Part shown: piece by piece, positions 1 to 41,865 of the stretch
Numbering within the stretch: position 1 is the first letter of the stretch
Layout of the letters: the number at the start of each line of letters is the position of its first letter
NCBI GenBank assembly: GCA_965216955.1
Contig: CBDCGV010000016.1
Coordinates: forward strand, 13,592-77,591
Direction of reading: 5' to 3'
Origin: Chitinophagales bacterium
GTDB taxonomy: Bacteria; Bacteroidota; Bacteroidia; Chitinophagales; JADIYW01
DNA length: 64,000 nt
Made by a program: the position numbers and the translations under genes
Notes under the pieces: model-generated
What the model was told of the DNA's origin: nothing
Databases searched by the model: none
What the model saw: the letters and a program-made list of their open reading frames with translations, nothing else

Positions 1-339
1 TCTAACGGCCGCTACTATTTCATCATTAATTTGAATATTATCCCACGCAGCAGGTTCTTTAACACGATAAAATTGTCCCTCTTCTCCTCCAACAATGACA
101 TCAACTGATCCCGTTTCTAAAGTATTATCAATTTGAATAAAATCTGTTACCGCATTTAATGTTTTTAAATGATTCAAAAGTCCTTTACCAGCTTCATCAT
201 TTCCAACACGAGATATAAGGGCCGCTTTATGACCTAAAGTATTCATATGAAGGGCTATATTCATTGGCACGCCCCCAGGTAATCTATCCGTAGGTAAATT
301 ATCCCATAAAATCTCTCCAAAACTAATTACTCGATACAT
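1..339 (-). CDS. PfkB-family carbohydrate kinase (fructokinase-like), N-terminal part only; the gene runs off the left edge
   Basis: Absent from the ORF track because it is truncated. Reverse-strand translation from the ATG at 339-337 gives MYRVISFGEILWDNLPTDRLPGGVPMNIALHMNTLGHKAALISRVGNDEAGKGLL..., and the frame stays open to position 1. The FGE-x-LxD ... GGxPxNxA N-terminus is typical of PfkB fructokinases. Confidence 0.6.
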   Translation of the reverse strand, partial: MYRVISFGEILWDNLPTDRLPGGVPMNIALHMNTLGHKAALISRVGNDEAGKGLLNHLKTLNAVTDFIQIDNTLETGSVDVIVGGEEGQFYRVKEPAAWDNIQINDEIVAAVR

Positions 340-482
340 AAAACAATATTGTTTGTGTTATTAAGACACTAAGATAATTAAATATATAATTTTACTTCCA
401 TATTTGCCAATATTAATCAGCTAGATATGATGTGTTTATGTTACGTACAAACTTTAGAAATATTAATACTTCTTTTTATCTA

Positions 483-1385
483 TTAAATTGACTTAACTAA
501 TGAATGCTTCAATTTTCCATTCTTATCCCAAAGCCCCCAAAAAGCTCCCACATCGCCTTCTGAACCGACCTTCCAAGATTCATCAAATGAGGTAAAGTAA
601 AAAACATCAATATTCTCTTCTCTAGACCATTTTTGCGTATTAATAAAATACTTCAAGGCATTTTCTTTAGAAGGTTGCGCTGAGCCACAATTAGTACCCT
701 CACTTGGCCAACCAGTTTCTGTAACAATTACTTTTTTTCCATTTCCTGCTATAGTAGCTTGATGGAACATCTGTTTCATGTATAACAAAGAATAATCCAT
801 ATGACATTCTTCCCAAAACGGATAACAATTGGAGAGGATGACATCACATGCTTCGGTAACTCTAGGACGGAGTGTAAACTCATAATAAGCATCAACATAA
901 CCTACATCTATATTAGGCAGCTCTTTTTTTACTTTATATATATTTTCCAAAAGTTCATCTTCTGTAAGATCTTTTCTATAAAGCACTTCATTCCCAACCG
1001 CTGCTATATCGACATAACCTTGATTAGCCAATTCAATCAGCCCTTCTATTTCTAGTTCATTAAGGGCTTTATCCTTACCCAACCACGCACCAACTAGTGT
1101 CTTAAGTCCAAACTCATGAGCTACCTGTGCTATTAATTCATTACCCTCTATGCAAGAAAAAGTCCGCACCCATTTTGTATAGGGAGCAATTATTTCCATT
1201 CTTCTTCTGATCTGATCCAAGCTTAGAATATCACCAGGTTTTTGGCCTTCTTCATAGGCACTAAAGCATAAGCCATGCATCCCATTACTCAGCACTTCAT
1301 AAAATAAATCCTGTATTTCTAAGGACGTTTTTCCTCGGTAATCTAATCCTGCAAGTGAAAATTGCCTTTGCTTTCTATACGACAT
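483..1385 (-). CDS. Glycoside hydrolase family 17 (beta-1,3-glucanase/transglycosylase-like), no signal peptide, so predicted cytoplasmic
   Basis: 300-aa ORF. It has the clan GH-A motifs AAVGNEVLYR (acid/base Glu) and VIVTETGWPSEG (nucleophile Glu) typical of GH17. The N-terminus MSYRKQRQFSLAGLDYRG is hydrophilic. Confidence 0.8.
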   Translation of the reverse strand: MSYRKQRQFSLAGLDYRGKTSLEIQDLFYEVLSNGMHGLCFSAYEEGQKPGDILSLDQIRRRMEIIAPYTKWVRTFSCIEGNELIAQVAHEFGLKTLVGAWLGKDKALNELEIEGLIELANQGYVDIAAVGNEVLYRKDLTEDELLENIYKVKKELPNIDVGYVDAYYEFTLRPRVTEACDVILSNCYPFWEECHMDYSLLYMKQMFHQATIAGNGKKVIVTETGWPSEGTNCGSAQPSKENALKYFINTQKWSREENIDVFYFTSFDESWKVGSEGDVGAFWGLWDKNGKLKHSLVKSI

Positions 1386-1404
1386 CTTTAATAACTACTA
1401 AACT

Positions 1405-2967
1405 TTATAATTCTCCTCTTCTACTAACCAATTCCTCTTTAATTTTCCTAGCCCTATCTTCTGATAAGCTATAATTCCACATCACTACAATTGCTAAAAG
1501 TGCTGTTGCCGCAGGAATTGCAATATCTGCAATACGTAAATTAGTCATGGTTTCAATAGTTTGTGTTGGAGCATCAGATATAAAACCAACTAGCTTCAAA
1601 ACTAATCCACCTAGAACCAATGCCAAAGCTTGTCCCAGTTTTACCATCCACCAATAAATTGCACCAAAAGTTCCTTCTTTTCGGGGCATTCCGTTTTCTA
1701 ATTCATCCAAATCACACACATCAGCTGTCATACTCATCATTAATGTAAACAATCCTCCCAAACCAAATGCTATAAAAGGAATAGGAATAAAGATTAACCA
1801 TGGTATTCCATTGCTTGCATCTATACTAAACCAAGACATTCCTATGCTATTCAATACAGGGTCCAAAAAGTTAAATATTGAAGTAATCACTCCATTTAAA
1901 GATTGTCCTAATCCAGTTTGGTTAAACCTTTCATTTAAAGTATTATCAAACCCCCACCATTTCAGGACATAACCAATAATAGATATCAGAGTAGAAATTA
2001 TAAACGCTTTTCTTTTACCCCATTTATTAGACATCCATGATATGATAGGAATAACAATAAACGCGGTTAACACCGCAGTGATTGTTGAAAACCATGCCGG
2101 CCATGTTCCTGCATCAGCATAACTTCCGTTAAACATATAAAAGACAATGATATAAACACTAAAAGCAGCTACCATCTGAAAGCCATTAAAAACCAAAAAT
2201 GTTGCTCCACAAAGTCGCATAAATGGCTTATTCTTTGCTACTTGTGCTATACCACGAAAGAGGTCCATCAAATTAGAAGATAACGTTTTCAATGATATCT
2301 CCTTTCTGTTTTCCATATTAGCAGAATCAATTCCTCTACAAAAAATGGCCGGAAATATTCCCAAAACCATACACACTCCACCAACAATCATAGATAATTG
2401 TCTTACACCAACAGCCTGGTTTTCAAATATTTCAGGATCAGCAATTATCACCCAAAACCACGGTACTATCATCCAGGCTATTTGTCCCATAGTATTGGCA
2501 AAAGCCATTAAGCGTGTACGCTCATTGTAGTCAGAAGTCATTTCATACCCCAGACCTACCAATGGAGTTGCAAACATCGTATTCCCAATTAAAAACAACA
2601 GTGAGAAGACCAAGAAATACCAAAAATTATAGGTTTCAGAATTATGTTCATTCAATTGCCATAGCAAAATAAAAAGTATGCCACTTAAAATGGCCCCCAC
2701 AAAAATATAAGGTCTTCTTCTTCCCCATCTAGACTTTGTGTTATCAGAGATAAATCCCATAATAGGATCTGTTAACGCATCAAAGATGCGAGGAAGTCCA
2801 CCCAACAGGCCTGCTAAAAAAGGATCCATACCAAAAGCGGTCAACAAGAAGAAAGAAAAGAAACCTAGTGCCCCTGGTAATAAATTTAATACTAAATGGC
2901 CCGCTCCAAATGCTGCCTTCTGCCCTAATGGAACTCTGTAATCAGCCGATGTCTTGTATTTTGACAT
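1405..2967 (-). CDS. Glycoside-pentoside-hexuronide (GPH)/MFS-type sugar:cation symporter
   Basis: 520-aa polytopic membrane ORF. It has the GPH signature DPIMGFISDNTKSRWGRRRPYIFVGA and about 12 hydrophobic segments. It sits between glucanase genes. Confidence 0.8.
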   Translation of the reverse strand: MSKYKTSADYRVPLGQKAAFGAGHLVLNLLPGALGFFSFFLLTAFGMDPFLAGLLGGLPRIFDALTDPIMGFISDNTKSRWGRRRPYIFVGAILSGILFILLWQLNEHNSETYNFWYFLVFSLLFLIGNTMFATPLVGLGYEMTSDYNERTRLMAFANTMGQIAWMIVPWFWVIIADPEIFENQAVGVRQLSMIVGGVCMVLGIFPAIFCRGIDSANMENRKEISLKTLSSNLMDLFRGIAQVAKNKPFMRLCGATFLVFNGFQMVAAFSVYIIVFYMFNGSYADAGTWPAWFSTITAVLTAFIVIPIISWMSNKWGKRKAFIISTLISIIGYVLKWWGFDNTLNERFNQTGLGQSLNGVITSIFNFLDPVLNSIGMSWFSIDASNGIPWLIFIPIPFIAFGLGGLFTLMMSMTADVCDLDELENGMPRKEGTFGAIYWWMVKLGQALALVLGGLVLKLVGFISDAPTQTIETMTNLRIADIAIPAATALLAIVVMWNYSLSEDRARKIKEELVSRRGEL

Positions 2968-2970
2968 AGT

Positions 2971-4464
2971 TTATTTTTTAAATGGTTTAATTACGATGGT
3001 TTGAATAGCTTGGGCTCCAATCTGAACGACTGTTGATTGTTGCAGTAGTGTTATTTCAAAATTCTTAGCTTTTTTATCTTGATTAAATACAACTATACTT
3101 ATTGAGTTATCAGGATTTTGAGCAGCTGTCACCATTAATGATTTATCAGAATAACTTGCATCAATCACTTGAGCACCTGGTCTAATGTACTTACTAAAAT
3201 GAGCCATAACATAGTACAACGGCGTAAAATAAACCTCGTCATTTACTTCGTCTACAATTACGGGAGCTACACACCAATTCTCAAACCAATTAGGCCCTCC
3301 TTGTTTATTCAGAACCATATTCCAATCTACCCATCCATCTACCCAATTATTCAAACAGCCAATAATATCTCTTGCATATCGGTTTACAGGAGCATATTTA
3401 GGATGTAAATATTTTTGATCTTCTGCAGCCCAGTCCCAGCCCCAATCGGTCGCCTCTTTACTCCAATACCAATCATCATCTTGCCATTTTGGAACTTCTG
3501 AATCAACGCAACCTTCTGTCTCTAATAAATATTTATCAGGGGCTTTGTTATGCGCATATTGTAATGCTTCAGGAAAAACTTCATAAGTACTTTCATACCA
3601 ATGAATCGCTGTTCCATCATAATATTTTGATGAAGCTTCATCTTTATACATTACATCAACCCATTCTTTTAAACCCGCTCGATTTTGATCATAACCCAAA
3701 ATTACAAGCTCTCCCTTTCCATCAGCCTCTAACTTAGGTCCTAGATGGTGTTGAACAAAATCTGTCATTTCTTCAGGAGTAAAATGCATACTTTCCCAGT
3801 TATCGCCATTGCCATGTGGCTCATTTTCCACTGTAAATCCCCAAAGATCAATACCCTCAGCTTTATATGCATCAACATATTTAGAAAAGAAAAGTGCCCA
3901 AGTATCATAGTATTTTGGAAGCAGTCTTCCACCTACCCAATGTTTATTATCTTTCATCCATGGCGGAGCTGTCCAAGGTGATGCAAAGATTTTAAACCCA
4001 TCCTCAGAGATAGCCATTGCATCTTTTATCATAGGTATAAGATCATCTAAATCCTCTTTTACAGAAAAATTCTCTAAAGTCATATCATCTTCTACCGGTG
4101 CATATGAATATTGACTCAAAGAAAAATCGCAAGAGTTCATATGTGTTCGTGTGAGAGAATAATTTGCCCCTTCTTTTCCGAAATATGCCTTTAAAATTTT
4201 ATCTCTATTTTTTTTGCTTAATCGGTTTAGTAGATATGCTGACGATTCTGTAAATGCTCCTCCAAACCCTGTAATGGTTTGATATTGTTTTTCAGGGGAT
4301 AATATAATTTTCGAAACATTTTCCGGATGTGAAAATTCGGAGACTGGAGTTAATTTATTCCCACTAATAGAAGTCTCATAAACCTCAACCTCTAAACTAT
4401 GTTCTTGAGAACAACTACTCATTATTAAAAAGACTATTAGAATTAAATAAATGTTTTGTTTCAT
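2971..4464 (-). CDS. Glycoside hydrolase family 30 lipoprotein (beta-1,6-glucanase/glucosylceramidase-like)
   Basis: 497 aa. Lipoprotein signal MKQNIYLILIVFLIMSSC. GH30-type motifs ITGFGGAFTESSAYLL, FTVENEPHG (acid/base) and LLETEGC (nucleophile). Confidence 0.8.
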   Translation of the reverse strand: MKQNIYLILIVFLIMSSCSQEHSLEVEVYETSISGNKLTPVSEFSHPENVSKIILSPEKQYQTITGFGGAFTESSAYLLNRLSKKNRDKILKAYFGKEGANYSLTRTHMNSCDFSLSQYSYAPVEDDMTLENFSVKEDLDDLIPMIKDAMAISEDGFKIFASPWTAPPWMKDNKHWVGGRLLPKYYDTWALFFSKYVDAYKAEGIDLWGFTVENEPHGNGDNWESMHFTPEEMTDFVQHHLGPKLEADGKGELVILGYDQNRAGLKEWVDVMYKDEASSKYYDGTAIHWYESTYEVFPEALQYAHNKAPDKYLLETEGCVDSEVPKWQDDDWYWSKEATDWGWDWAAEDQKYLHPKYAPVNRYARDIIGCLNNWVDGWVDWNMVLNKQGGPNWFENWCVAPVIVDEVNDEVYFTPLYYVMAHFSKYIRPGAQVIDASYSDKSLMVTAAQNPDNSISIVVFNQDKKAKNFEITLLQQSTVVQIGAQAIQTIVIKPFKK

Positions 4465-4473
4465 TTCGAACTA

Positions 4474-5772
4474 TTAATGTGCCACTACGATTTCCTGTTT
4501 TATTGGCGGAAGATCAACTATTTCTAACAACGTCTCCTTATCACCATCATAGGTTTTAGTAATAGTATTTCCATTTCGAGACAAATCATTAAACCGCCCT
4601 TCATCTACTAAATCCCAGAGCGCATACTTTGCTTTCCCATCCACAGTAAATAAACCAAAATGATTTTCAGAACCTTTATCGTTATGCGCATCCTTCCAAG
4701 GCTCATCAAAGGCTTCAAAATAAAAGCAAGAAATGCCTTCTTTATTAGTCCATTCACGCATTAATTGATAATATAACCCCTCTTTATATTCATCTGTAGC
4801 TTTAGAACCATGTGGTCCATAATGACCATTGGATACGGTTGCCCAACCTGTTTCTCCAATATGGACTGGCTTATCAACTCCTAAACTTTTCATGTAATCA
4901 GTAACCGCTTTGAATTGAGCTTTTGCAAAATCTCTTGCCCGAATCATTGCAGCATCTATTTTCTCAATATCTGAAAGGCCCTCCTCTTCGATATGAATAC
5001 CCCAGAAATCAGGATTGTAATGTGTGTTGTGATAAGGATAGGTATGCATTGATATATAGTCTACTGCTTTGATTAAAGCCTCTAAATCATCAACATGATA
5101 GCTGGTATCGCCCCCACCCCATGACGAAAAATCATCAGAGCTGGTAATCCATAAATCCTTTGAAAGTTTGCCAGACGCTTTAAGGTCTTGCAAATAATTT
5201 ACCCACTTCAATATCACATTCGGTTGCACGTAATAACTAGTGGCCCATTTAACCATTGCTTCGTTACCAACCGCAATAATTTTAACAATATCGGGATACT
5301 TATTTGCCAAAATTATCGCCCTCTCAATCTCGCCTGCATTTTGCTCATGCTCAATGTTATGATCAGGAGGATAATCAGACCAAGCATTCTTACAATCAAT
5401 CCAAGCTCCTAACATCATATACATTTCAAAATTACTATCCTCCTCTTTCAACTCACGAATTGCTTTTAACAAATTAGATGCCTGCGCTAATTGAACATTA
5501 TATGTTCGAATCAACTTAACGTTCATAGCATAAAGAATCTTCATATCTTCCTTTAGCTCTTCAATAGTTGGCTGAATATCACGCGTCTTCATGCGATATC
5601 CTCCATAAGAAATTGCCAAATAATCTGGATTGCCTAATATATCTTTAGCTGTCACCTCCTTTTTTGTTTGCTGATGTTGATTCGTTTCTCTCTTTGTCGA
5701 TTGATTGCTACAAGAAATACTAATTATCAGTAGCATCAAGCTTGAAATTAATATTTTAAATAATAGCTTCAC
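4474..5772 (-). CDS. Glycoside hydrolase family 17 lipoprotein (endo-beta-1,3-glucanase-like)
   Basis: 432 aa. Lipobox LLIISISCSN. Motifs IAVGNEAMVKW and VHIGETGWATVSNG. Paralogous to the 300-aa GH17 but carries an export signal. Confidence 0.8.
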   Translation of the reverse strand: MKLLFKILISSLMLLIISISCSNQSTKRETNQHQQTKKEVTAKDILGNPDYLAISYGGYRMKTRDIQPTIEELKEDMKILYAMNVKLIRTYNVQLAQASNLLKAIRELKEEDSNFEMYMMLGAWIDCKNAWSDYPPDHNIEHEQNAGEIERAIILANKYPDIVKIIAVGNEAMVKWATSYYVQPNVILKWVNYLQDLKASGKLSKDLWITSSDDFSSWGGGDTSYHVDDLEALIKAVDYISMHTYPYHNTHYNPDFWGIHIEEEGLSDIEKIDAAMIRARDFAKAQFKAVTDYMKSLGVDKPVHIGETGWATVSNGHYGPHGSKATDEYKEGLYYQLMREWTNKEGISCFYFEAFDEPWKDAHNDKGSENHFGLFTVDGKAKYALWDLVDEGRFNDLSRNGNTITKTYDGDKETLLEIVDLPPIKQEIVVAH

Positions 5773-5773
5773 T

Positions 5774-8700
5774 TTATTTCAATTCTGATTCCATAATATG
5801 AACAATTATCTTAAGTACTTGACCTGTTCTTTCAAAAATTTGACTACTCGTTGTTGCATCTAAGCTCAAAGTTTCAAGCTTAGCCGTTGTCCCATTTTCT
5901 TTTATCACCTCTAAACTATTCTTCGAAGCAATCTTATAAACTATTGGCACTTGACAATATGTAAAACATAGGGTGCCTTTTTCTAAGCCCAACTGCTTAA
6001 TAACACCATGTACATTTACATATTCTAAAACTTTTGTTTCTTCTAAAAACTCATCTTTTCTTAGTAGGCAAGGATTAAAATACAATTGACCTGCTGCTAC
6101 AAAAGCCCCTAATTCGCCAAACCTACATAGTATATCTTCTTTCACCTGTCCAGTCATCCCAGGTTGTTGAGCTCCCTTTCCAGCTGGAGTATGGGAATAT
6201 GGATCTGTTGGAAAGGCACCATAAAGAGACGGTGACTTATGTACACCGATACCTTCATTAATTTCATAGTAATGCTCTAACAACTTACCAACAATTACCG
6301 CATCCTCTCCATGCCTTATTGCACTCAAACAGCATTCTTGCACAGCCAATTGCAATTTGGAAACCATATGCCAATAAATAGACCCTAGACCCTCATATCC
6401 AAAAAAAGTTCCTGACCTCCCAGTAAAAGCTTTATGATTGAATACTTCTTCATAAACCTCTAAGATTCGTCCCTTTTCTTCAGATATTAATTTGCCATAC
6501 CTATTTTGATCCAACAATTTCAGTGTTTTTTGCAGGTCATTGGCATTTTTAAAATTACTATTAAAGTGGTAAGTACCTTGAATATCCTTTTCAATGATCT
6601 GACTATTCCCGTCTTCAACTAACTGCTTCAATAATACAGATTCTAAAATCAATTCTATTGGCACATTATTTTTCTTTAAAAACCGAGGCAAATCCTTATT
6701 TGGATAAAGTAAATAACTATACTGATCATCTCTAAAAAGAGCGCTACTCTTCAATGCATCAAGCACTTCTAAAGACTGTTTTGCGGTTAAATATCCCGAA
6801 CTTAAAACTGCAACCTGTCCCTCCAGCATTTCACTTAGATATGAAATAGATATTTTATTCTCACTTTTAATAGACATTAAATTATAAGCATGATACAAAT
6901 TATCCTGTCTCTTATTAGCTCTAATAGTGTGTTCCATATACTTGAGGCTAACATTAATGAAACGTTTCAATCCTTTTGCAGATATGGTTCTTTTCTCCCC
7001 CCAGAAATTCTGTTTATAAATATGTTGTCTATAATCACTCGCCGCTTGTCCTAGACCATCCAAAATAAGTTTACGGTTTTCATCACTTATAGCTTCGGAC
7101 AAAAGACTTTCGTGATTATCGAAAACTTCTCGGCATCGTTTATAAAAAATTATAAGTTCATTAGACAACTCAAATCTTTCAATTTCTGACTTCTCTAAAA
7201 GTTCTCCAAAGAATTTCAAAAACCGCCTTAGATAACAAAGTGTAACAACAGAAACGCCATTCCCTACTAGTGCATTATTGGCATCATTCCACTCTGGACG
7301 TTGCGTATTCATCCAAATACCTCCTTCAGGAATATAATTGGACAACTTAATTAATAGAGTAACTAATATTTTTTCAATGAAATTTACTGTATATATAGAC
7401 TGGTTCTCATCTCTAAGTAAGGTTGCGTCTGCACCTATAATTTCTTTTTCTTGTCGTAACTGACGATCTAAATCATAATCAAACTCAATAGTATCCTTTG
7501 AGTCGATAAGAATATCTTCATAACCTTTAATTTTATAGGGAATATTTGCATAAACAAAATCCTTCTTATCGAAATAGCTTAATAGTTTTCCGGGATGATG
7601 TTTTTCTGCAAACTCCAAAAATTTCAATAAATAAATAATCTGATGATCTCCCCAGTAACCAATATAAGACCAAGGGTTATCAGGTTCTATAGATTCCCAA
7701 TCAAAACCATCTTTTGTAACTCTATAAGGATTATACCCATCAAAAGTAGAAGCATTTAAAAATTTATAGATCATGCTTTCTATGAATTCAGGGTATGAAT
7801 GTGCCAATGCTTCCCAATTTTGGAAAATATCTCGCCAATTCCCCTCATAATCCAAGAGTTTTGACCCATCATTTTTGCGCATATTGATAGAGAACTTATT
7901 CCATGGCCTGCTGGGATCACCATGTCTTCTACTAAACTTCAATGGCATATACTCCATACATAACCTTCTGAAGGCAGCATCTTCACTTTGTTCAGCTATT
8001 GCTCTCAATTTTGTTATAGAAAACAAATCAGGAAGCTTTTCAACTTCATGAATAAACTTTTCAAACACCTCTTTATTCGCTCTTAAGAGATAATTTTCGA
8101 CATCCCATTTTTCTACTTGGTAGTTAAAATCAAAAACTCCACCCCTCATAATGTTGAATAAGACATTTGAAAAATGCCTAGTATCACGAAGATTATCAGA
8201 AGTCAATTGAAGTCCATCAGCAGCGGCATTTAGTTGCACTAAACGCTTTGAGCCTAACTGAATATCTTCTATAACAAGTTGCACCAAATTTTCTTCAACT
8301 TGGATCGTATTCAAAAGTTTAGCTATTGAAGCATGATTCTTATTTACATCTGCAACAATCATCCATTCCTTTTTTCCATTAGGAGGAAGCATAATATCGG
8401 CATTGATAAAATAAGCCCCTTTTTCTCCTTTAATATCTTCTTCTTCATGAAGTGATTGTCCTTTTCTAAATCTTTTTAACTGTGATGATGAAAGCAGGTG
8501 AATCACTTTTGACAACCCTAAGGACCAAACCACATTGGCCTTTAATGCCTCGCTTGGTTCTGCTCTATCTACAATTATTGCACTTAATGAGAATATTCCT
8601 AAACCACTATCTTTTATCAATTCACTTCGTTTATAGGCATCCACTAGATTGCTATATTGATTCTGCAAATCGCTTCCCACACTAGAAGGTATAATATTTT

Positions 8701-9229: not shown

Positions 9230-9235
9230 ATTATT

Positions 9236-10063: not shown

Positions 10064-10099
10064 TCTAATTATTTTAACAAAGGAATGTTGACTTTAAAA

Positions 10100-10390
10100 T
10101 TAATTTGTAAGCATTATGTCGTCTATATAATAAACAGAACCGTCGGCTGGCCCGTTATCTACATCATCTGGAATTATAACAAACTTATCATAAACATTTG
10201 TTCCAGATGTAAATGGCTGATCGTTAAAATCAAATGTTAACTCTGTCCATGCATTAGCATTTGTGATAGTAGCTGTTTTTTGATAAGTTACAATTGGCCC
10301 CTGATTACCTTCCTTTTCTATTTGAAATCTTACAACCACATTCGCTTTTGGCGACCAAATTTTCATTTTAAACACCTTAGTCGTGGTCAT
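10100..10390 (-). CDS. C-terminal fragment of the upstream glycan-binding lipoprotein, separated from it by a frameshift
   Basis: The 96-aa ORF MTTTKVFKMKIWSPKANVVVRFQIEKEGNQG... matches the second half of an internal module of ORF 10392-14987 (DMTTNKVFKMKIWSPKANVIVRFQIEKEGNQG...). It has no signal peptide of its own. Confidence 0.7.
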   Translation of the reverse strand: MTTTKVFKMKIWSPKANVVVRFQIEKEGNQGPIVTYQKTATITNANAWTELTFDFNDQPFTSGTNVYDKFVIIPDDVDNGPADGSVYYIDDIMLTN

Positions 10391-10391
10391 A

Positions 10392-13300
10392 TCAAAATTT
10401 GACGGAAAAAATGTGAAAAATACCTGAATACCAAGCGGCCCCAGATACTTTGTTAAATTGATACACTTTATCCGTCGTATTAATCCCTGTCTTATTAGGA
10501 TTTTCTGCTGGAAACCCTGTTACACCATCACCATCTTCAAACACTCCCGATAAATTCTCACAGTTCTCAAAATCAATTGGGAAAGTCGTCAAATTAGGAG
10601 CTTGTGGTGTAGAACATCCTCCAGAACTTGAAGTTTTATAGAAATAGATATTGTCTATCCAGATATTTGATGGATTCGTGCCTCCTTGTCCATCAAATTT
10701 TAATTGTAAAATATCTCCAAAAGATACACCTGTGAAATCTGAAAGTGGAATATCATAGCTGTTCCATTCGCCAGAAGTAATTGGCGTCAGGTTTACTAAA
10801 AACTCCCCTGTACTTGCACTTATTGGTGTGAACTTAATATCCGTCGCATCAGCCGTCCATACATCGATATGTACAAACTCCATCGAAGACATATCTTCAT
10901 TACCCGTAAACTGGGTTCCCTGATAATTAAAGTTATCGTACTTCAACGTATTGTTACCTGAAACACTCACCTGACTTGCTGATCCTGATTGTCCCCAATT
11001 TGGATTAAAGTCCGATACATTTATATCTGTATAGGCATCACTAAATACAGAGATTACATCTGCTGCGTCTCGTGTTGGTGTTGGTGCTGCTGTTGTTGGC
11101 TCTGTTGCCGAACTTGGCTCCTTATAAAAGTAGATATTGTCTATCCAGATATTTGATGGATTCGTACCTCCTTGTCCATCAAATTTTAATTGTAAAATAT
11201 CTCCAAAAGATACACCTGTGAAATCTGAAAGTGGAATATCATAGCTGTTCCATTCGCCAGAAGTAATTGGCGTCAGGTTTACTAAAAATTCCCCTGTGCT
11301 TGCACTTATTGGTGTGAACTTAATATCCGTCGCATCAGCCGTCCATACATCGATATGTACAAACTCCATCGAGGACATATCTTCATTACCCGTAAACTGG
11401 GTTCCCTGATAATTAAAGTTATCATACTTCAACGTATTGTTACCTGAAACACTCACCTGACTTGCTGATCCTGATTGTCCCCAATTTGGATTAAAGTCCG
11501 ACACATTTATATCTGTATAGGCGTCACTAAATACAGAGATCACATCTGCTGCGTCTCGTGTTGGTGTTGGTGCTGCTGTTGTTGGCTCTGTTGCCGAACT
11601 TGGCTCCTTATAAAAGTAGATATTGTCTATCCAGATATTTGATGGATTCGTACCTCCTTGTCCATCAAATTTTAATTGTAAAATATCTCCAAAAGATACA
11701 CCTGTGAAATCTGAAAGTGGAATATCATAGCTGTTCCATTCGCCAGAAGTAATTGGCGTCAGGTTTACTAAAAACTCCCCTGTACTTGCACTTATTGGTG
11801 TGAACTTAATATCCGTCGCATCAGCCGTCCATACATCGATATGTACAAACTCCATCGAGGACATATCTTCATTACCCGTAAACTGGGTTCCCTGATAATT
11901 AAAGTTATCATACTTCAACGTATTGTTACCTGAAACACTCACCTGACTTGCTGATCCTGATTGTCCCCAATTTGGATCCGACACATTTATATCTGTATAG
12001 GCATCACTAAATACAGAGATCACATCTGCTGCGTCTCGTGTTGGTGTTGGTGCTGCTGTTGTTGGCTCTGTTGCCGAACTTGGCTCCTTATAAAAGTAGA
12101 TATTGTCTATCCAGATATTTGATGGATTCGTGCCTCCTTGTCCATCAAATTTTAATTGTAAAATATCTCCAAAAGATACACCTGTGAAATCTGAAAGTGG
12201 AATATCATAGCTGTTCCATTCGCCAGAAGTAATTGGCGTCAGGTTTACTAAAAATTCCCCTGTGCTTGCACTTATTGGTGTGAACTTAATATCCGTCGCA
12301 TCAGCCGTCCATACATCGATATGTACAAACTCCATCGAGGACATATCTTCATTACCCGTAAACTGAGTTCCCTGATAATTAAAGTTATCGTACTTCAACG
12401 TATTGTTACCTGAAACACTCACCTGACTTGCTGATCCTGATTGTCCCCAATTTGGATTAAAGTCCGACACATTTATATCTGTATAGGCATCACTAAATAC
12501 AGAGATCACATCTGCTGCGTCTCGTGTTGGTGTTGGTGCTGCTGTTGTTGGCTCTGTTGGTGTTGAACCTCCTGTTGTAAGCTCAATATCATCAATGTAA
12601 TAAATAGAACCATCAGCAGGTCCATTATCCTCATCATCAGGAATAATGACAATTTTATCATATTCTATTGGTCCAGTTAACGCATCACCAGAAAAATCAA
12701 AGGTTAACTCTGTCCATGTATTTGCAGTTGCAACGGTTTGCGTTTTATTGAAAGTAGCGATTGGTCCTTGATTCCCTTCTTTTTCAATTTGAAATCTTAC
12801 AATCACATTTGCTTTTGGTGACCAAATCTTCATTTTAAAGACTTTGTTGGTCGTCATGTCAAAATTTGACGGAAAAATGTGAAATAGACCAGAATACCAT
12901 GCCGCTCCAGAAACTTTATTTAATTGATACACTTTATCTGATGTATTAATCCCTGTCTTATCAGGATTCTCTATTGGTGCACCTGTTACTCCATCTCCTG
13001 ATTCAAACACTCCAGAAAGATCCTCACAATTCTCAAAATCAATTGGTAAAGATGTCAAACTTGGACTTTGAGGTGTAGAACAATCTCCACCTGTACTTGA
13101 AGTTTTATAGAAATAAATATTATCTATCCAGATGTTAGATGGATTGGTTCCCCCTTGTCCATCAAATTTTAATTGACCTACTTGACTAAAATCTACATCA
13201 GTAAATTCCGATAGTGGAATATCATAACTTACCCATTGTCCTGAAGTAATTGGCGTTAAACCAACCAATGTTTCGCCGTCTCCGATAGGTGTGAATTTTA

Positions 13301-14987
13301 CATCTGTGGCATCAGTCGTCCACATATCAATATGTACAAACTCCATATCTGACAAGTCTTCATTACCTGTAAACTGAGTACCTTGATAATTGAAATTGTC
13401 ATATTTCAAAGTATTGTTACCATCTACACTGACCTGACTTGCTGCACCTGATTGCCCCCAGTTAGGATTAAAATCTGATACACCAATATTTGTATATGCA
13501 TCACTAAATACAGAAATCACATCTGCCGCATCACGTGTTGGTGTAGGTGCCGCTTCTGTCGGTCCATTATTACCTACATCTTCATTTCCTATATAGAAGT
13601 AAATGTTATCTACAAAAACATTTGGTATATCTCCAGACAATACTATTAGCGCTAATTTTGTTTTTGTACTTGGTAGTGGAATATCTAAGCTTACCCATTC
13701 TCCCGTCTCCAAAGCCGGACTCATAAAAGTAGTTTCAGAAACGATATCATCGCCACCACCTATAGCTCCATCTGGACCTGCATCAAATACTTCAATCTTA
13801 AACTGCTTACCAGCGGTTTCGTCCGGTGTCCAAATATCCATATGTAAATGTGTCATTTCAGAAGCATCTACTGTAGGATTGGCAAATTGAATACCTACAA
13901 AATTGAGCAACTTATACCTTATCATATCGTCTCCATCGACTTGTGGATAATCCTCTACCGTAGTAGAACCATCACCTGTCCAATATCCATTAAAGAAATC
14001 TACCGGTACATTGTTATAAACATTACTATACAAAGAAATTACACTATCGGAATTAACAGTTGGCACAGGAGCTGTTGGCGGTAATATAGCCTCTCCTGTT
14101 GACACAATAGCTAATGACCCCACAGCATCAACATCTCCCATTTTGGCTGTTATTACTGCAGTACCTGCATCAAGTACCATTGCTACACCTAGGCTACTAA
14201 CCGTAGCAACAGATGTTTCAGAAGATGTGAATGTCAAATACGAAGGTGAAATTTCGACCAATTGTTCGATGTCGTCTAATAGACTAACTGTTAAAATCAA
14301 TTCTTCAACAGTTATATTCTGACCTGTTTCAGCACTTACTGTATCATTTCTTTTTCCTTGAATACCAGCTTCATAGTGTGCCAATGTACCTAAACTTTCA
14401 AATTGAACTTCATCAACCCAAAAGGAATATCCTGCTCCATTGTCATTTAAAGTTCCATCTGAAAAAAAGAATAATCCTTTTTCTTGAATAAGTTTAGATG
14501 GATCTGGAATTGGAATAATCACTTTTTCCCATGCAGTGCTAACTTTCAAATCCTTTAAAGTCACCCTATATTCAGAATCCCCCTCACCAAACTCATCACC
14601 AAATCCTAATTGATCTATTGTAGCAGATTGAGAAGCTCTTACCCAAAAAGTAAGTGCATTAAACCCTGACAAATCACGTCCATCCGCCACATAAAAAGCA
14701 CCCCCAGCATAATTACCGGTTGGATCATCTGGATTTGGAACATCAAACCTCATTGACGCCTCGCCATCATAAACAATATCATTATCCACCTGAAAAGCCG
14801 TTAATTTTGATCCTCCATAGGCACCATACTCTAAACCGCTACTAAATCCATCAATAAACACTTCTCCGTTGGTAGAGAAAGTTGCAGGATCTAAGTCATC
14901 AAAATCTCTTTTACAACTAATAATGACAGATGACAAGATAAATGTCATTAATAGAATAGTTACCGAAAAACTTCTTTTATTCCTCAT
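10392..14987 (-). CDS. Multi-module surface glycan-binding lipoprotein (CBM-like jelly-roll modules plus a Big_2-like Ig domain), truncated by a frameshift
   Basis: 1531 aa. Lipobox SSVIISCKRDFDDLD. Repeated modules of about 160 aa end in NPSNIWIDNIYFYK, and two modules of about 150 aa end in YYIDDI(E/M)LT. PT-rich linkers join them. The position after GH16 matches the SGBP slot of a PUL. Confidence 0.7.
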   Translation of the reverse strand: MRNKRSFSVTILLMTFILSSVIISCKRDFDDLDPATFSTNGEVFIDGFSSGLEYGAYGGSKLTAFQVDNDIVYDGEASMRFDVPNPDDPTGNYAGGAFYVADGRDLSGFNALTFWVRASQSATIDQLGFGDEFGEGDSEYRVTLKDLKVSTAWEKVIIPIPDPSKLIQEKGLFFFSDGTLNDNGAGYSFWVDEVQFESLGTLAHYEAGIQGKRNDTVSAETGQNITVEELILTVSLLDDIEQLVEISPSYLTFTSSETSVATVSSLGVAMVLDAGTAVITAKMGDVDAVGSLAIVSTGEAILPPTAPVPTVNSDSVISLYSNVYNNVPVDFFNGYWTGDGSTTVEDYPQVDGDDMIRYKLLNFVGIQFANPTVDASEMTHLHMDIWTPDETAGKQFKIEVFDAGPDGAIGGGDDIVSETTFMSPALETGEWVSLDIPLPSTKTKLALIVLSGDIPNVFVDNIYFYIGNEDVGNNGPTEAAPTPTRDAADVISVFSDAYTNIGVSDFNPNWGQSGAASQVSVDGNNTLKYDNFNYQGTQFTGNEDLSDMEFVHIDMWTTDATDVKFTPIGDGETLVGLTPITSGQWVSYDIPLSEFTDVDFSQVGQLKFDGQGGTNPSNIWIDNIYFYKTSSTGGDCSTPQSPSLTSLPIDFENCEDLSGVFESGDGVTGAPIENPDKTGINTSDKVYQLNKVSGAAWYSGLFHIFPSNFDMTTNKVFKMKIWSPKANVIVRFQIEKEGNQGPIATFNKTQTVATANTWTELTFDFSGDALTGPIEYDKIVIIPDDEDNGPADGSIYYIDDIELTTGGSTPTEPTTAAPTPTRDAADVISVFSDAYTDINVSDFNPNWGQSGSASQVSVSGNNTLKYDNFNYQGTQFTGNEDMSSMEFVHIDVWTADATDIKFTPISASTGEFLVNLTPITSGEWNSYDIPLSDFTGVSFGDILQLKFDGQGGTNPSNIWIDNIYFYKEPSSATEPTTAAPTPTRDAADVISVFSDAYTDINVSDPNWGQSGSASQVSVSGNNTLKYDNFNYQGTQFTGNEDMSSMEFVHIDVWTADATDIKFTPISASTGEFLVNLTPITSGEWNSYDIPLSDFTGVSFGDILQLKFDGQGGTNPSNIWIDNIYFYKEPSSATEPTTAAPTPTRDAADVISVFSDAYTDINVSDFNPNWGQSGSASQVSVSGNNTLKYDNFNYQGTQFTGNEDMSSMEFVHIDVWTADATDIKFTPISASTGEFLVNLTPITSGEWNSYDIPLSDFTGVSFGDILQLKFDGQGGTNPSNIWIDNIYFYKEPSSATEPTTAAPTPTRDAADVISVFSDAYTDINVSDFNPNWGQSGSASQVSVSGNNTLKYDNFNYQGTQFTGNEDMSSMEFVHIDVWTADATDIKFTPISASTGEFLVNLTPITSGEWNSYDIPLSDFTGVSFGDILQLKFDGQGGTNPSNIWIDNIYFYKTSSSGGCSTPQAPNLTTFPIDFENCENLSGVFEDGDGVTGFPAENPNKTGINTTDKVYQFNKVSGAAWYSGIFHIFSVKF
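10630..12565 (-). repeat. Four near-identical in-frame tandem repeats (486, 486, 480 and 486 bp) encoding a CBM-like module
   Basis: The landmark gatattgtctatccagat recurs at 10647, 11133, 11619 and 12099, spaced 486, 486 and 480 bp. One unit carries a 6-bp deletion near 11975 (SDPNWG versus SDFNPNWG). Confidence 0.9.
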
Positions 14988-15019
14988 TTGTGAAATTTTA
15001 TTAATTATTATTTATTTTC

Positions 15020-18000
15020 TTATTTACCTATACTGAATTGGAAATATGTTCTGATTTCCCATTCTCTTCCATTATCAAACCCAATTGCATCAGGATCGCA
15101 TACCACAGCACCCGTTGCATCTACTTGTTGTGTAGGACAATATCTAGGTGAATACTGATTCAGAGATCTCCATGTATAACTTATTCCAATTCTTGTATCT
15201 GGCTTAATAAACCACGATGGTTTACCTACCGTTGTAGACAAATCAAACTTTAATTGTACAGGGAAAGTTTGATTAAAATCTCGATGGTAATCGTAAGGCC
15301 CCCAATCATTTACTTTAACGCTAGAAATTAACTTAGCCTTTTTATATATCATTCTTAAGTCTGTTCCGAATCGCTTAATTAATCGCTCATCGCTTCCATT
15401 TGACTGTCCATTTCCTCCATATATGTTTGCAATAAATCCAAAGTCTGGACTTATTTTAGAAACAATGCGTGTATTGACTTCCCATAAATCTTCTGCCGGT
15501 GGTGCTCCCGAAAATGGAAAGTTTCCACCATCTGCAAAGGTTCCTATAGCGGCATCTTGCGTAGTAGGATGATGTTTAAATACCACCCCTGCACTCATTG
15601 CAAACTTCGCATCTTCTGCTTCATCATTATTCCATTCATACATCCATGTAGCAGGTGTAGGATCGAAAGTGATTAATAATTCTCCACCAATCGTTTCTCT
15701 ATTACTTCTAACAACGAAAGGATCATCTAAAATATTTCTTGCTCTTCCAGGAGCCGCAACATCTCCAGAAATTGGACCTACAACTGGTTTTTGCCATAAG
15801 AAGTTAGGTGCAATTTGGAAATTTCCAAACCCTAATGTAAACCCTGTTAAAAAGTTATATTGATTTCCACTACCACTGTCTTTCAATCTCCAACCTGTAA
15901 AAGTCTGGGTATAATCACCGCCTCCATTGGCTACTAACCCCATGGCAGCACCTTGCATATACCAGTTAAACATACCTTTTGAGAAAGTAAATTTCCCCTT
16001 AATACCAAAGGCATCCTTAGCTTCAATTTCATCTTGGTACACCGTTCCATCTGAATCATCTACAATTTGGAAGCTTCTACCAACTAAAGGCTGGCCTCCC
16101 CAAATACCACCAAGCTCGATACCTACGGGTCCGAATTCTCTTTCGGCATGCAATGTTAATCGTCTTGTTTTAGGAGCAGGAATACTAAAAGATCGTTGAT
16201 TATCACCATTTTGTGTTCCAATATCCTCATGAAAAATTGCAGTTAACTGCGTCTTTTTAATATGTCTAGAATACTTTAAGAGTAATGCTGGATTTGCTCC
16301 CCACCATAATTCAGGTCCTATTGCAGCTTTTAATCCTTTTGCTTTTTTCTTTCCTTCAATTTCGATTCCGATTGGAGCATTGCCATTATAGATATCTAAA
16401 TTCGGTCCATAATTCGCTTCTGGATACAATCCAAAAAAGTCTCCTTCATACCCCCAATGATAATGTCCTACTCGATAAAACCCTTTTAAGTCAAAATATT
16501 TGTGGTTCCAACTAAACTCTGCATTGTATACCTGAAAACGCTTAACATCTTCTAATTCTGTAGTACCATTAGGTGTCGAAACGGTTACAGGAAGCCCTCT
16601 ATTTTCATAAAATATTTCATTGATCGGATTATTAGGAATATTACCTAAAACATTAAAATTCACACTAGCTCTAACATTTGGTGTAGGCATAGCCTCTACT
16701 CCAAAATAAAAAGATTGTAAGTGGTCAAATCCAACTTCATCTCGATCATTTTCATCAGATATCTCAATATTTTTACCTCCTGTGTTAATTGTTGCCATAT
16801 CAATTCTCAAATCACTCATACGCACCTTACTGCCTTTTTCACCAGTTAAAGCAGCTTTATCTCCTCTTGCTCTCAGTACTGCATCTGCCAATTGAATATT
16901 AGAAAAATAATTATTTATATATGCTAGTGAAGCTCCTTCTGCATATGGATTTAATCTATGTGCCTCTTTCAAAGCGTAATAGGCCGCTCGAGGATACAAT
17001 TGATATATTCCTCGCGCATCTGTTTCACCTTTAGCACAAACGCCAAACCACTCTTCATTCATATTATTTTCTCCTTCCGAATAGTCATTTCGGTATCCCC
17101 CATTACTCCAAGAGGCATTATTATCGTGAACACTTAGATTTTTAGTTTGTCCGTATTTCCACCAGCCATCACTAAATTGAAAAGTAAAACCTCCTAAAGA
17201 ATTACCTGTCTTTCCTAAGCCAGCAGCATTTTCATAAATTTCCTTCCAATTCTCAACCATATAGAATGCCTGAGCTTGTTGATCTTCTGAATTAGATATG
17301 GCGTTAAAAGCATCCGCACCAAATTCTGTAAAAAGAATAGGCTTATTCAACTCCTCTTTTACTTTCTGAAAAGCATCTCCAAAAGATGATCCACGATACA
17401 TATTGGTACCAAATATGTCAATGTCTTTACATTCTTCTTTGATAATATCTAGGAACAACAAATCACCATTACAAATTGCAACCGGGTGATTTTTGTCAAT
17501 GGCTTTCATTTCTACCACAGCTTCATTGAATAATTTATACATGTGGCGTGCTCTTATTGTAGATTTTCTATCCTCAATAGGAATATCTTCCGTTTCTGCC
17601 CCTCCCCAGAAAAGGCCATAATTATTTTCATTACCCAATAAATAAAGAAGCAATCCAGGTGTACCTTTATAAGATTCAGCCATCTGCTTTACTTCAGAAA
17701 TCAATAATTCCTTTGCACGTGGATCAGAATATTCGGTATTACCAACCCAGCTTCCAGATAAAGTCAAACCATAACGACCAAATGAATGGTTAAGCATGGT
17801 ATATATTCCATATTTTTCGTAAATATATTTTATCCATTTTGCAGGAACACCAGTGTATACTCTAATTGCATTGACGCCCATATTTTTCAATAAAGACATT
17901 TCAGCATCAAGAGCCGCTCTAATAACATCATCAGACTGTTTCCACAAACTATAATTGTAATTGGTTCCAATGGGAAAGTAATCCCAATTCATACCATTAA

Positions 18001-18181
18001 CCATAAAATCGTCGCCATTCACGACCAATTTCATACCTGATTCATTATTTACAATAGCTACCTCATTGGTTTGTGCCATCCCAACAGTAACTAAAAAAGA
18101 GAAAATAATGCTTAGAAAAGTATTTCGTACCATATTCATATTTATATTAAGGTTTAACAACGAGACTGTCCTTTTGTTCAT
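15020..18181 (-). CDS. Secreted clan GH-A (beta/alpha)8 glycosidase domain fused to a roughly 600-aa putative outer-membrane beta-barrel
   Basis: 1053 aa with a signal peptide (..FLVTVGMAQ). It has LLGNENNYG (acid/base Glu) and PILFTEFGAD (nucleophile Glu). The C-terminal half is Gly/aromatic-rich with alternating-polarity strands and ends REWEIRTYFQFSIGK. The start may instead be one of the internal Mets at 18139 or 18133. Confidence 0.55.
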   Translation of the reverse strand: MNKRTVSLLNLNINMNMVRNTFLSIIFSFLVTVGMAQTNEVAIVNNESGMKLVVNGDDFMVNGMNWDYFPIGTNYNYSLWKQSDDVIRAALDAEMSLLKNMGVNAIRVYTGVPAKWIKYIYEKYGIYTMLNHSFGRYGLTLSGSWVGNTEYSDPRAKELLISEVKQMAESYKGTPGLLLYLLGNENNYGLFWGGAETEDIPIEDRKSTIRARHMYKLFNEAVVEMKAIDKNHPVAICNGDLLFLDIIKEECKDIDIFGTNMYRGSSFGDAFQKVKEELNKPILFTEFGADAFNAISNSEDQQAQAFYMVENWKEIYENAAGLGKTGNSLGGFTFQFSDGWWKYGQTKNLSVHDNNASWSNGGYRNDYSEGENNMNEEWFGVCAKGETDARGIYQLYPRAAYYALKEAHRLNPYAEGASLAYINNYFSNIQLADAVLRARGDKAALTGEKGSKVRMSDLRIDMATINTGGKNIEISDENDRDEVGFDHLQSFYFGVEAMPTPNVRASVNFNVLGNIPNNPINEIFYENRGLPVTVSTPNGTTELEDVKRFQVYNAEFSWNHKYFDLKGFYRVGHYHWGYEGDFFGLYPEANYGPNLDIYNGNAPIGIEIEGKKKAKGLKAAIGPELWWGANPALLLKYSRHIKKTQLTAIFHEDIGTQNGDNQRSFSIPAPKTRRLTLHAEREFGPVGIELGGIWGGQPLVGRSFQIVDDSDGTVYQDEIEAKDAFGIKGKFTFSKGMFNWYMQGAAMGLVANGGGDYTQTFTGWRLKDSGSGNQYNFLTGFTLGFGNFQIAPNFLWQKPVVGPISGDVAAPGRARNILDDPFVVRSNRETIGGELLITFDPTPATWMYEWNNDEAEDAKFAMSAGVVFKHHPTTQDAAIGTFADGGNFPFSGAPPAEDLWEVNTRIVSKISPDFGFIANIYGGNGQSNGSDERLIKRFGTDLRMIYKKAKLISSVKVNDWGPYDYHRDFNQTFPVQLKFDLSTTVGKPSWFIKPDTRIGISYTWRSLNQYSPRYCPTQQVDATGAVVCDPDAIGFDNGREWEIRTYFQFSIGK

Positions 18182-18270
18182 TTTTTGTTAAGACAGCGTT
18201 AAGGTATGGTTTCCACAACAATAAGACATTACGATTACACTTCACAAACAGATAATTCAACAGCATTTTA

Positions 18271-18320: not shown

Positions 18321-18361
18321 CTTCTGGTTTTTTCTCCTAACTTTAGGAATAATACGTAACT

Positions 18362-41774: not shown

Positions 41775-41865
41775 ATAACTTTAATGAGGTTGTAAAATAC
41801 ATTTATTTTGGGACGATATATCCGTTTTAAAATTAATCACTTTAGGAATTCATACCATTGGTGAA

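Follow-up and report, generated by a model that had tools for sequence, protein, structure and literature searches.

Which protein carries laminarin across the outer membrane is the question raised by a 64,000-nucleotide stretch of DNA from a Chitinophagales bacterium (GenBank assembly GCA_965216955.1, contig CBDCGV010000016.1, positions 13,592 to 77,591 of the forward strand). In this stretch, hereafter the window, whose own coordinates are used throughout, an operon on the minus strand (483-18181) very probably serves the catabolism of laminarin with a cytoplasmic phosphorolysis branch. None of the open reading frames (ORFs) scanned across the 64 kb matched TonB_dep_Rec, Plug, SusD or GH3 in Pfam, as the preliminary description of this DNA had anticipated in reporting no SusC, SusD or glycoside hydrolase (GH) family 3 protein in view. 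Outside the genes of the operon and the regulator, a single ORF reaches 900 aa or more; it encodes an adhesin-like protein of 2450 aa assigned to the type IX secretion system (T9SS). The analysis reported here drew attention to the first gene of the operon, in which an enzyme domain is fused to a predicted outer-membrane beta-barrel. Taken as a whole, a laminarin operon in which the barrel of the first gene product is the entry route is the explanation that we favour with reasonable confidence; for the barrel as the outer-membrane passage, considered by itself, our estimate lies somewhat below an even chance.

The gene layout, taken from the ORF list, comprises eight genes in nine coding segments, where the preliminary description had counted seven and eight. 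The gaps between the segments, which measure 32, 1, 36, 6, 1, 9, 3 and 19 bp in transcription order, agree with the spacing of 1-36 bp between 483 and 18181 that it gave. The genes encode, in this order, the fusion protein, a lipoprotein with carbohydrate-binding modules (CBMs), GH16, GH149, a first GH17 (GH17A), GH30, a transporter of the major facilitator superfamily (MFS) and a second GH17 (GH17B), and the hidden Markov models of Pfam and NCBIfam agreed with each of the earlier family guesses for GH16, both GH17 proteins, GH30 and the MFS_2/GPH transporter. A scan for sigma-70 promoters and terminators performed no better than on shuffled sequences; the scan does not model Bacteroidota promoters, and no operon boundaries were drawn from it. 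To compare the cluster with its relatives, 80 genome loci containing a GH149 protein were fetched with 10-kb flanks, and all proteins of the window were mapped onto them. The results revealed a conserved order of regulator, fusion, CBM protein, GH16, GH149, GH17A, GH30, MFS and GH17B, which recurs in Saprospiraceae, Lewinellaceae, Phaeodactylibacter, Flavobacterium, Kordia, Winogradskyella, Tenacibaculum, Dokdonia and others, that is, in at least three families. GH17A was present in 76 of the 80 loci, the CBM protein, GH16 and MFS in 71 each, GH30 in 67, and the fusion and GH17B in 64 each, most absences being due to contig ends. The best identities to related loci were 69-73%, rising to 82-84% for the CBM protein and MFS in comparison with a Saprospiraceae metagenome-assembled genome (MAG); the closest metagenomic GH17B was 71% identical.

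Synteny with published laminarin loci was evident as well. The locus of Muricauda lutaonensis ISCAR-4703 (PMC13188888) has the gene order of the window, with a LuxR-type regulator, 'GH2', GH16, GH149, GH17A, GH30_1, MFS and a leaderless GH17B, and no susC/susD has been described for it either. That study, of 2026, regards the product of the first gene simply as a GH2 beta-glycosidase and does not comment on the C-terminal 600 aa. The window differs from the Muricauda locus in its much larger CBM lipoprotein, which has four near-identical repeats and a frameshift, and in a downstream PfkB gene. The 'variant B' loci of Formosa, Polaribacter and F. agariphila (PMC6246565, PMC6298971, bioRxiv 10.64898/2026.01.10.698779) share with the window GH16, two GH17, GH30, GH149, GH158 and BguR, and laminarin induction and periplasmic roles of GH30 and GH17A have been reported for them. 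However, in the variant B loci susC/susD directly follow the regulator and the second GH17 of Formosa is fused to the MFS transporter, whereas the window has no such pair in view, an unfused MFS and a GH158-like enzyme that carries a barrel. The founding paper on GH149 (2018) already placed the Bacteroidetes members of the family either in polysaccharide utilization loci (PULs) or in 'CAZyme clusters lacking susCD', together with GH16, GH17 and GH30_1 (PMC5827456). The architecture of the cluster is thus published and not new, and the operon is a further example of the known GH149-containing type of laminarin cluster ("variant B"/CAZyme-cluster), in which the genes of GH149, GH16, an endo-type GH17, GH30_1, MFS and another GH17 lie together and keep their order. 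In the strict sense a PUL has an adjacent susC and susD pair, which was not found within the 64-kb window; in the broader sense it has carbohydrate-active enzymes (CAZymes), a surface glycan-binding lipoprotein and a dedicated regulator, and these are co-located here.

What distinguishes the locus is the product of its first gene (15020..18181, minus strand), a protein of 1053 aa. The preliminary description had proposed that it is a fusion of a GH-A domain and a barrel, a proposal borne out by invariant catalytic residues, AlphaFold2 models and Foldseek matches. Residues 1-36 form a signal peptide of the signal peptidase I type (SPI), ending in AQ|T (…VGMAQ|TNE), and are followed by a clan GH-A, GH158-like (beta/alpha)8 domain at about residues 40-415 (nt 18064-16937), a helical linker at 419-450, and the barrel. 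The two-domain fold was directly observed in the models, as were the signal-peptide types, the family memberships and the gene order with its conservation in the sequences. More than 5600 homologues of the fusion were found, and the top 120, all of 1040-1077 aa with 67-73% identity, were annotated only as 'GH2 TIM barrel-domain protein' or 'glycosidase'; in the literature, the marine homologue has been labelled variously GH2, GH158 and GH0 (PMC13188888; bioRxiv 10.64898/2026.01.10.698779; PMC10108472). In Pfam the protein matched only GH2_C (PF02836, TIM barrel; residues 90-299, 27.9 bits). An assignment to GH2 was rejected, this weak TIM-barrel match being accompanied by no GH2 N-terminal or Ig-like domains, and the beta-galactosidase model of NCBIfam scored 30 bits against a cut-off of 1284.

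Foldseek searches with the N-terminal half returned the GH158 endo-laminarinases 9P26 and 6PAL as top matches (E~1e-10). The catalytic motifs G-N184-E185-N and T-E286-F-G were invariant in 51 homologues and aligned with GNE and TEFG of GH158(Pro), so that a clan GH-A fold, an N-E acid/base and a nucleophile Glu after strand 7 were all found, as in GH158. At the level of sequence, phmmer and hmmsearch against 9ORO gave E=0.015 and E=0.0054, with 13-16% identity. The GH158 enzymes BuGH158 (6PAL) and GH158(Pro) (9ORO/9P26) resemble the fusion in their clan GH-A fold and aligned glutamates, but BuGH158 is a surface lipoprotein and GH158(Pro) is soluble, and neither has a barrel. A 2026 study described a large GH158 cluster as processive. 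The fusion also contains a near-invariant insertion at residues 337-392 (FSDGWWK…NMNEEWFG), modelled with a predicted local distance difference test score (pLDDT) below 50, which could be a mobile active-site lid or a contact surface with the barrel.

The C-terminal half, residues ~452-1051 (nt 16828-15029), forms an outer-membrane beta-barrel of about 26 strands. Residues 430-1053 had no match in Pfam or NCBIfam, and no curated family covers the barrel. In the full-length AlphaFold model, helices at 419-450, of which helix 431-450 lies just ahead of the barrel, connect the (beta/alpha)8 domain to a series of long antiparallel hairpins. When the C-terminal 626 residues were modelled alone from a more diverse alignment, 26 long strands were obtained with a pLDDT of 76 and a predicted TM-score (pTM) of 0.76. 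Foldseek matched this half only to outer-membrane barrels (FepA, PfeA, BtuB, OprC, MtrB, FimD and LptD), with TM-scores of at most 0.40. The strand amphipathicity was 2.65, compared with 1.62±0.24 in within-strand shuffles, the maximum of 1000 shuffles being 2.43. The protein ends in ...TYFQFSIGK, and divergent homologues end in ...YFQYFF, ...YVLSF or ...TSISY. The SPI signal, the 26 amphipathic strands, the short turns, the long loops and the aromatic-rich end are those of outer-membrane beta-barrels in general. The protein shares with SusC-like and other large barrels (FepA, BtuB, LptD, MtrB, FimD) a large antiparallel barrel, and its gene stands in the position of susC, but its barrel is without plug, TonB box, carboxypeptidase-like N-terminal domain or SusD partner and has ~26 strands instead of 22. 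Its identification as a SusC-type or other TonB-dependent transporter was rejected on these grounds, there being no match to TonB_dep_Rec.

The connections between the strands indicated the orientation of the barrel. Those after even-numbered strands measured 2, 3, 6, 2, 2, 6, 2, 2, 21, 2, 2 and 9 residues and those after odd-numbered strands 14, 36, 34, 7, 19, 5, 6, 26, 31, 25, 7, 11 and 32 residues, and therefore, if the barrel obeys the rule common to proteins of the outer membrane, strand 1 starts on the periplasmic side and the enzyme domain would lie in the periplasm. Several loops, 570-603 (HYHWGYEGDFFGLYPEANYGPN…), 625-631 (LWWGANP) and 819-860 (DDPF.VR.NRE…DPTPATW.Y.W.ND..EDA), showed a conservation of 0.56-0.81 compared with 0.45 for the strands, which argues against an inert anchor. 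A HMMER search with the barrel alone against 1.84 billion representatives yielded 494 clusters at 50% identity, and all full-length members of the barrel family, even those at 30-35% identity, carry the N-terminal GH domain of the fusion, so that the fusion appears to be old and maintained. Proteins of ~560-620 aa that looked like stand-alone barrels were discarded; they have no signal peptides, begin in mid-domain and are probably fragments. In the literature searched, no mention was found of the C-terminal barrel of the first gene product. The barrel is therefore the under-described part of an otherwise known operon and the new point of this analysis.

Comparison of the related loci related the barrel to SusC/SusD. 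In about 58 loci with a full-length fusion, its gene is the first after the regulator and directly precedes the genes of the glycan-binding protein and GH16, and this slot is the one occupied by susC/susD in F. agariphila and in the related locus L014. In four loci, the gene directly upstream of GH149 encodes a barrel-less version of 435-450 aa (L001, 8606-9913; L014, 8591-9928; L042, 8649-10001; L074, 8520-9848). These homologues are 62-76% identical to the enzyme domain and end at the linker, and they are presumed to be periplasmic because their signals are of the SPI type and neither a lipobox nor a T9SS tail is present, which independently supports a periplasmic enzyme domain in the fusion. 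The genes of L014 run SusC, SusD, PKD protein, GH16, enzyme-only gene and GH149, and in L042 a SusD/CBM block lies ahead of the regulator and the enzyme-only gene, with susC/susD upstream. Four Saprospiria-type loci with 10 kb annotated upstream have the divergent regulator and then housekeeping genes, and no susC/susD. Downstream of GH17B, among the 36 loci with at least 5 kb of sequence, a susC/susD pair was found once, ~3 kb away in the metagenomic locus L099. Judging from these related loci, a pair immediately to the left of the window is unlikely. A strict either/or of barrel and SusC/SusD was rejected, since four loci carry both; the pattern of the loci nevertheless favours the barrel as the outer-membrane passage, short of proof.

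The remaining genes of the operon carry predicted laminarin functions. GH16 (9236..10063, minus strand; 275 aa; Pfam GH16, 80.3 bits) is an endo-beta-1,3(4)-glucanase lipoprotein by family, in which the lipobox is followed by CQEDD, a motif of the surface-export type. GH17A (4474..5772, minus strand; 432 aa; Pfam GH17, 36.5 bits with a cut-off of 28.2) is likewise a lipoprotein (…ISISCSNQ) and lacks the acidic motif; it is the positional orthologue of the endo-beta-1,3-glucanases FbGH17A and MlGH17A (PMC6246565, PMC13188888). The GH30 lipoprotein (2971..4464, minus strand; 497 aa) matched Pfam GH30 with 268 bits and GH30C with 44 bits, and the NCBIfam endo-1,6-beta-glucanase model with 247 bits, which is under the equivalog cut-off of that model. 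By position and family it is predicted to be an exo-beta-1,6-glucosidase that debranches laminarin, the function of FbGH30 having been characterised in Formosa (PMC6246565). The acidic residues that the preliminary description had noted after the lipid-modified cysteine, CQEDD and CKRDFDD, are present in the translations of GH16 and the CBM protein, respectively. Its statement that the surface enzymes are all lipoproteins held for these two proteins and not for GH17A and GH30, which are lipoproteins without the acidic surface-export motif and whose Formosa orthologues were judged periplasmic (PMC6246565); the surface claim is therefore limited to GH16 and the CBM protein.

For the cytoplasmic branch, which the preliminary description had also proposed, the decisive protein is that of 1151 aa (5774..9229, minus strand). 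The Pfam scan returned no match for it, but the NCBIfam equivalog NF058639 scored 1783 bits against a cut-off of 1150, and residues 15-1151 matched PDB 6HQ6/6HQ8 (Pro_7066) with E=0 and 1662 bits. Similarity over the full length to a characterised member and a score above the equivalog threshold identify it by sequence as a GH149 beta-1,3-(oligo)glucan phosphorylase, and it is taken to be cytoplasmic because it has no signal peptide. Pro_7066 (PDB 6HQ6; PMC5827456, PMC6484121), which is GH149 without a signal peptide as in the window, is metagenomic, and the cluster around it is of Bacteroidota type and includes GH16, GH17 and GH30 (PMC5827456); the window protein is a different orthologue, and its activity is predicted. 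The transporter (1405..2967, minus strand; 520 aa) is a putative inner-membrane sugar:cation symporter of the MFS_2/GPH type according to Pfam MFS_2 (200.8 bits, cut-off 27), and reached 187 bits with the TIGR00792 gph model, under its cut-off of 231. GH17B (483..1385, minus strand; 300 aa; Pfam GH17, 47 bits with a cut-off of 28.2) has no signal peptide and is therefore regarded as cytoplasmic; it is the positional orthologue of MlGH17B, a cytoplasmic beta-1,3-glucanosyl-transglycosylase (PMC11005184). In many relatives (e.g., L002, 16292-18661) the transporter is, as in Formosa, an MFS-GH17 fusion, of 789 aa, and a leaderless GH17B is still encoded separately after it, whereas the MFS of the window stands alone. 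The fused GH17, which is exo-acting, and GH17B, which is of the transglycosylase type, are thus different genes and do not replace each other. As described earlier, a PfkB-family sugar kinase lies 143 bp beyond the last gene, starting at 339 (1..339, minus strand; Pfam PfkB, E=4e-11), of which the N-terminal 113 aa are seen before it runs off the window. No PfkB homologue was found downstream of GH17B in 160 related loci, and the kinase is therefore probably not a conserved member of the operon, a status that was rejected for it.

The CBM lipoprotein (10100..14987, minus strand) is predicted to bind glycans at the cell surface. It is encoded in two frames, by segments of 1531 aa (14987..10392) and 96 aa (10390..10100), and has the lipobox ...IISC followed by KRDFDD. 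The modules recognised were an N-terminal domain, an Ig-like domain, six 'A' modules of ~160 aa and two 'B' modules of ~170 aa. Pfam gave weak Big-like and CBM_4_9 matches, and the 'B' module matched PDB 8QX6 with E=4e-5, an entry that covers 165 aa of a 'PKD domain-containing protein'. No significant match was obtained in the PDB for the whole protein or for the 'A' module, and the literature search found no paper linked to 8QX6. The architecture parallels that of the laminarin-binding Cf-SGBP, and the modules are putative laminarin-binding CBMs. That the gene is split, as had been described, is seen in the sequence, where a T6 homopolymer at 10406..10411 (minus strand) stands in place of the T5 of the intact paralogous module (~12870). 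The +1 frameshift interrupts the last 'B' module, only the last ~100 residues being lost, and deletion of one T from the T6 run restores the frame (...FHIFPSNFDMTT...). The frameshift lies close to the 3′ end of the gene and may be a homopolymer sequencing error. Tandem Repeats Finder detected four tandem units of 486 bp with 97% matches at 10636..12559 (minus strand), each corresponding to one 'A' module of 162 aa; one copy is two codons shorter than the others (…VSDPNWGQ… vs …VSDFNPNWGQ…). The array may have arisen by recent amplification or reflect collapse or expansion in the assembly, so that its repeat number may be unstable or mis-assembled.

Divergently from the operon, a BguR-type one-component regulator that crosses the membrane is encoded at 18362..21241 (plus strand; 959 aa; Pfam Y_Y_Y, Reg_prop and GerE). 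It consists of an N-terminal hydrophobic leader, a Reg_prop/Y_Y_Y sensor, one transmembrane helix (~765-782) and a C-terminal GerE/LuxR helix-turn-helix domain, and the Pfam scan showed no kinase (HisKA, HATPase) or receiver domain in it. This architecture matches that described for BguR (bioRxiv 10.64898/2026.01.10.698779), and with its domains, its single transmembrane helix and its location beside a beta-glucan locus the protein has the marks of a BguR-type regulator, with a predicted role in regulation. A homologous regulator adjoins the cluster in 45 of the 80 related loci, and its divergent orientation in the window is the Saprospiria-type layout, which makes it likely that the DNA derives from a Saprospiria-like member of the Bacteroidota. 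In the intergenic region 18182-18361, three direct CTACTCA heptamers with a spacing of 11 bp were read from the plus strand at 18292-98, 18303-09 and 18314-20. Related loci have CTATACA-type heptamers upstream of the orthologous first gene, and in these upstream regions CYAYWCA heptamers numbered 46 against 5.5 expected in shuffles, the commonest spacing being 11 bp. The three CTACTCA copies are therefore presented as a candidate BguR operator, the sequence of which seems to depend on the lineage.

From these data a pathway can be proposed, in which the enzyme activities are those expected by analogy with characterised orthologues. The CBM lipoprotein would bind laminarin at the surface and the GH16 lipoprotein would cut it endo-wise, a step proposed because of the lipoboxes followed by KRDFDD and QEDD and by analogy with Cf-SGBP and Cf-GH16_3. 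The chains might then cross the outer membrane via the ~26-strand barrel, which has neither plug nor TonB box and whose conserved aromatic-rich loops would be the likely glycan path. At the periplasmic end of the barrel, the GH158-like endo-beta-1,3-glucanase domain would cut the entering chain, and the cutting would keep the transport downhill and may ratchet the chain inward. In the periplasm, GH30 would strip the beta-1,6 branches and GH17A would yield oligosaccharides of 2-4 units (DP2-4), as their characterised orthologues suggest. The MFS_2/GPH symporter, by its family, would import these oligosaccharides into the cytoplasm, where GH149, like its orthologues, would phosphorolyse them to glucose-1-phosphate. 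GH17B might re-lengthen the short products so that more bonds can be phosphorolysed, in a cooperation resembling that of MalQ and MalP, a kinase would handle residual glucose, and the divergent BguR-type regulator would control the operon. The scheme resembles the maltodextrin system of E. coli, where sugars likewise enter by a channel that does not depend on TonB, meet an endo-enzyme in the periplasm, are imported across the inner membrane and are handled in the cytoplasm by a transglycosylase, a phosphorylase and a kinase. In E. coli these parts are LamB, MalS, MalFGK2, MalQ, MalP and Glk, and LamB is an 18-strand trimer. However, the protein families are others, the E. coli system handles alpha-1,4 and not beta-1,3 bonds, and in the window channel and periplasmic enzyme would be one polypeptide.

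As to what kind of passage the barrel may provide, we tentatively propose that the fusion is a TonB-independent and SusC-independent, enzyme-coupled laminarin gate, which would be a new class of outer-membrane glycan importer. It would consist of a plug-less channel covalently coupled to a (possibly processive) endo-beta-1,3-glucanase, with hydrolysis at the exit driving or rectifying entry. This proposal is possible rather than probable, and we hold it a little less firmly than that of the barrel as an entry route. Speculatively, a ratchet driven by hydrolysis is conceivable if the processivity of GH158 holds for the fusion domain. Several observations weigh against the favoured explanation as a whole. 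The assignment of the enzyme domain to GH158 comes from its fold only. Confidence in the barrel model is moderate, and no known structure is close to it, as the TM-scores given above indicate. A helix just before strand 1 is also a hallmark of autotransporter linkers. Full-length fusions with susC/susD upstream exist, in four loci only (Kordia L027, L030 and L043; Winogradskyella L064), and in L001 a barrel-less enzyme occurs with no susC/susD within 8.6 kb. The gene of the CBM lipoprotein carries a frameshift, and the adjacency of a kinase is peculiar to this locus (none in the 160 relatives). Finally, many marine Flavobacteriia have two or three laminarin loci, some of which have been suggested to be helper modules (PMC6298971, PMC6246565).

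The last point leads to the explanation closest in probability, which we regard as less likely than not, namely that the import is the work of a SusC/SusD pair encoded elsewhere, in another laminarin locus or immediately beyond the left edge of the window, the operon being a helper module and the barrel only a tether that fixes the periplasmic endo-glucanase to the inner face of the outer membrane, perhaps beside SusC. The Kordia and Winogradskyella loci, where susC/susD lie directly upstream of the full-length fusion, and the pair ~3 kb downstream of GH17B in L099 are in line with it. On the other hand, the fusion fills the slot of susC/susD in most loci, barrel-less versions occur where susC/susD adjoin, the four Saprospiria-type loci have no pair within 10 kb upstream, and a downstream pair is limited to the single locus among 36. 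As for the tether, a barrel of 600 aa and 26 strands with loops more conserved than its strands would be a costly anchor, and Bacteroidota normally use a lipid anchor. An autotransporter-like display, in which helix 431-450 would run through the lumen of the barrel and the GH158-like domain would act on polymeric laminarin at the surface together with GH16 and the CBM protein, appears quite improbable. In type Va autotransporters, too, a signal peptide is followed by the passenger enzyme, an alpha-helix and finally the C-terminal barrel, and the gut enzyme BuGH158 acts on the cell surface (PDB 6PAL title; PMC7157763). The features of a type Va translocator are present only in part, however: the helix is there, but the barrel has ~26 strands and not 12, and no autotransporter family of Pfam was matched. 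Moreover, the signals of the barrel-less homologues point to the periplasm, and Bacteroidota expose enzymes by lipoprotein export signals or the T9SS, both of which are present in the window. Least probable of all, and scarcely to be expected, is a cluster that serves mainly a different beta-1,3-glucan (of the curdlan-like or mixed-linkage kind, or a storage or periplasmic glucan of the cell itself), or one in which GH149 and GH17B work towards synthesis. In vitro the reaction of GH149 can be reversed (PMC5827456), an energy-storage role was suggested by the authors of the MlGH17B study (PMC11005184), and relatives of BguR also control beta-1,2-glucan loci (bioRxiv 10.64898/2026.01.10.698779). 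Yet the operon encodes GH16 at the surface, a lipoprotein with several CBMs and a debrancher of the GH30 type, an importer would be of use only with a branched beta-1,3/1,6-glucan from outside the cell, and laminarin induces orthologous loci, which reach high expression in diatom blooms (PMC6246565, PMC10108472).

Other genes of the window lie beyond the operon and its regulator. The 2450-aa protein mentioned above (25091-32443, minus strand) is built of Ig repeats and ends in a T9SS C-terminal sorting domain; the G+C content of its gene is 44-46%, compared with ~32-38% elsewhere in the window, which could reflect a composition bias driven by the repeats or a foreign origin. At 32641-35800 (plus strand), ORFs of 642 aa (no Pfam match) and 433 aa (weak GDSL match) overlap by 71 bp in different frames, and their starts are doubtful because both were called from TTG. 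A run of secreted proteins at 36387-45117 (minus strand) comprises an FG-GAP/ASPIC protein, two beta-propeller proteins, a GH76 protein (alpha-1,6-mannanase family) and a membrane protein with an HTTM domain, three of them with T9SS tails; like the operon it lacks susC/susD, and it may represent another cluster related to glycans. The region 47784-63152 encodes a carbamoyltransferase, a DegT-type aminotransferase, a GFO/IDH oxidoreductase, two radical-SAM proteins (one of them B12-binding) and a GDSL lipase, and looks like a cluster for the modification or biosynthesis of sugars or lipids.

Laminarin is among the largest fluxes of the marine carbon cycle, and counts and expression of SusC/SusD serve as proxies of glycan use. 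If the barrel imports laminarin, a widespread route for this glycan would be invisible to surveys based on SusC/D, and the fusion would count among the rare glycan gates that are coupled to an enzyme and independent of TonB. In bloom-associated MAGs a 'GH0' gene beside GH149 ranks with the most strongly expressed genes (PMC10108472), and the 'GH2/GH158/GH0' gene that stands out in such bloom metatranscriptomes would thereby gain a function. Should the proposal prove true, thousands of marine and freshwater Bacteroidota would take up an abundant algal glycan without SusC/SusD.

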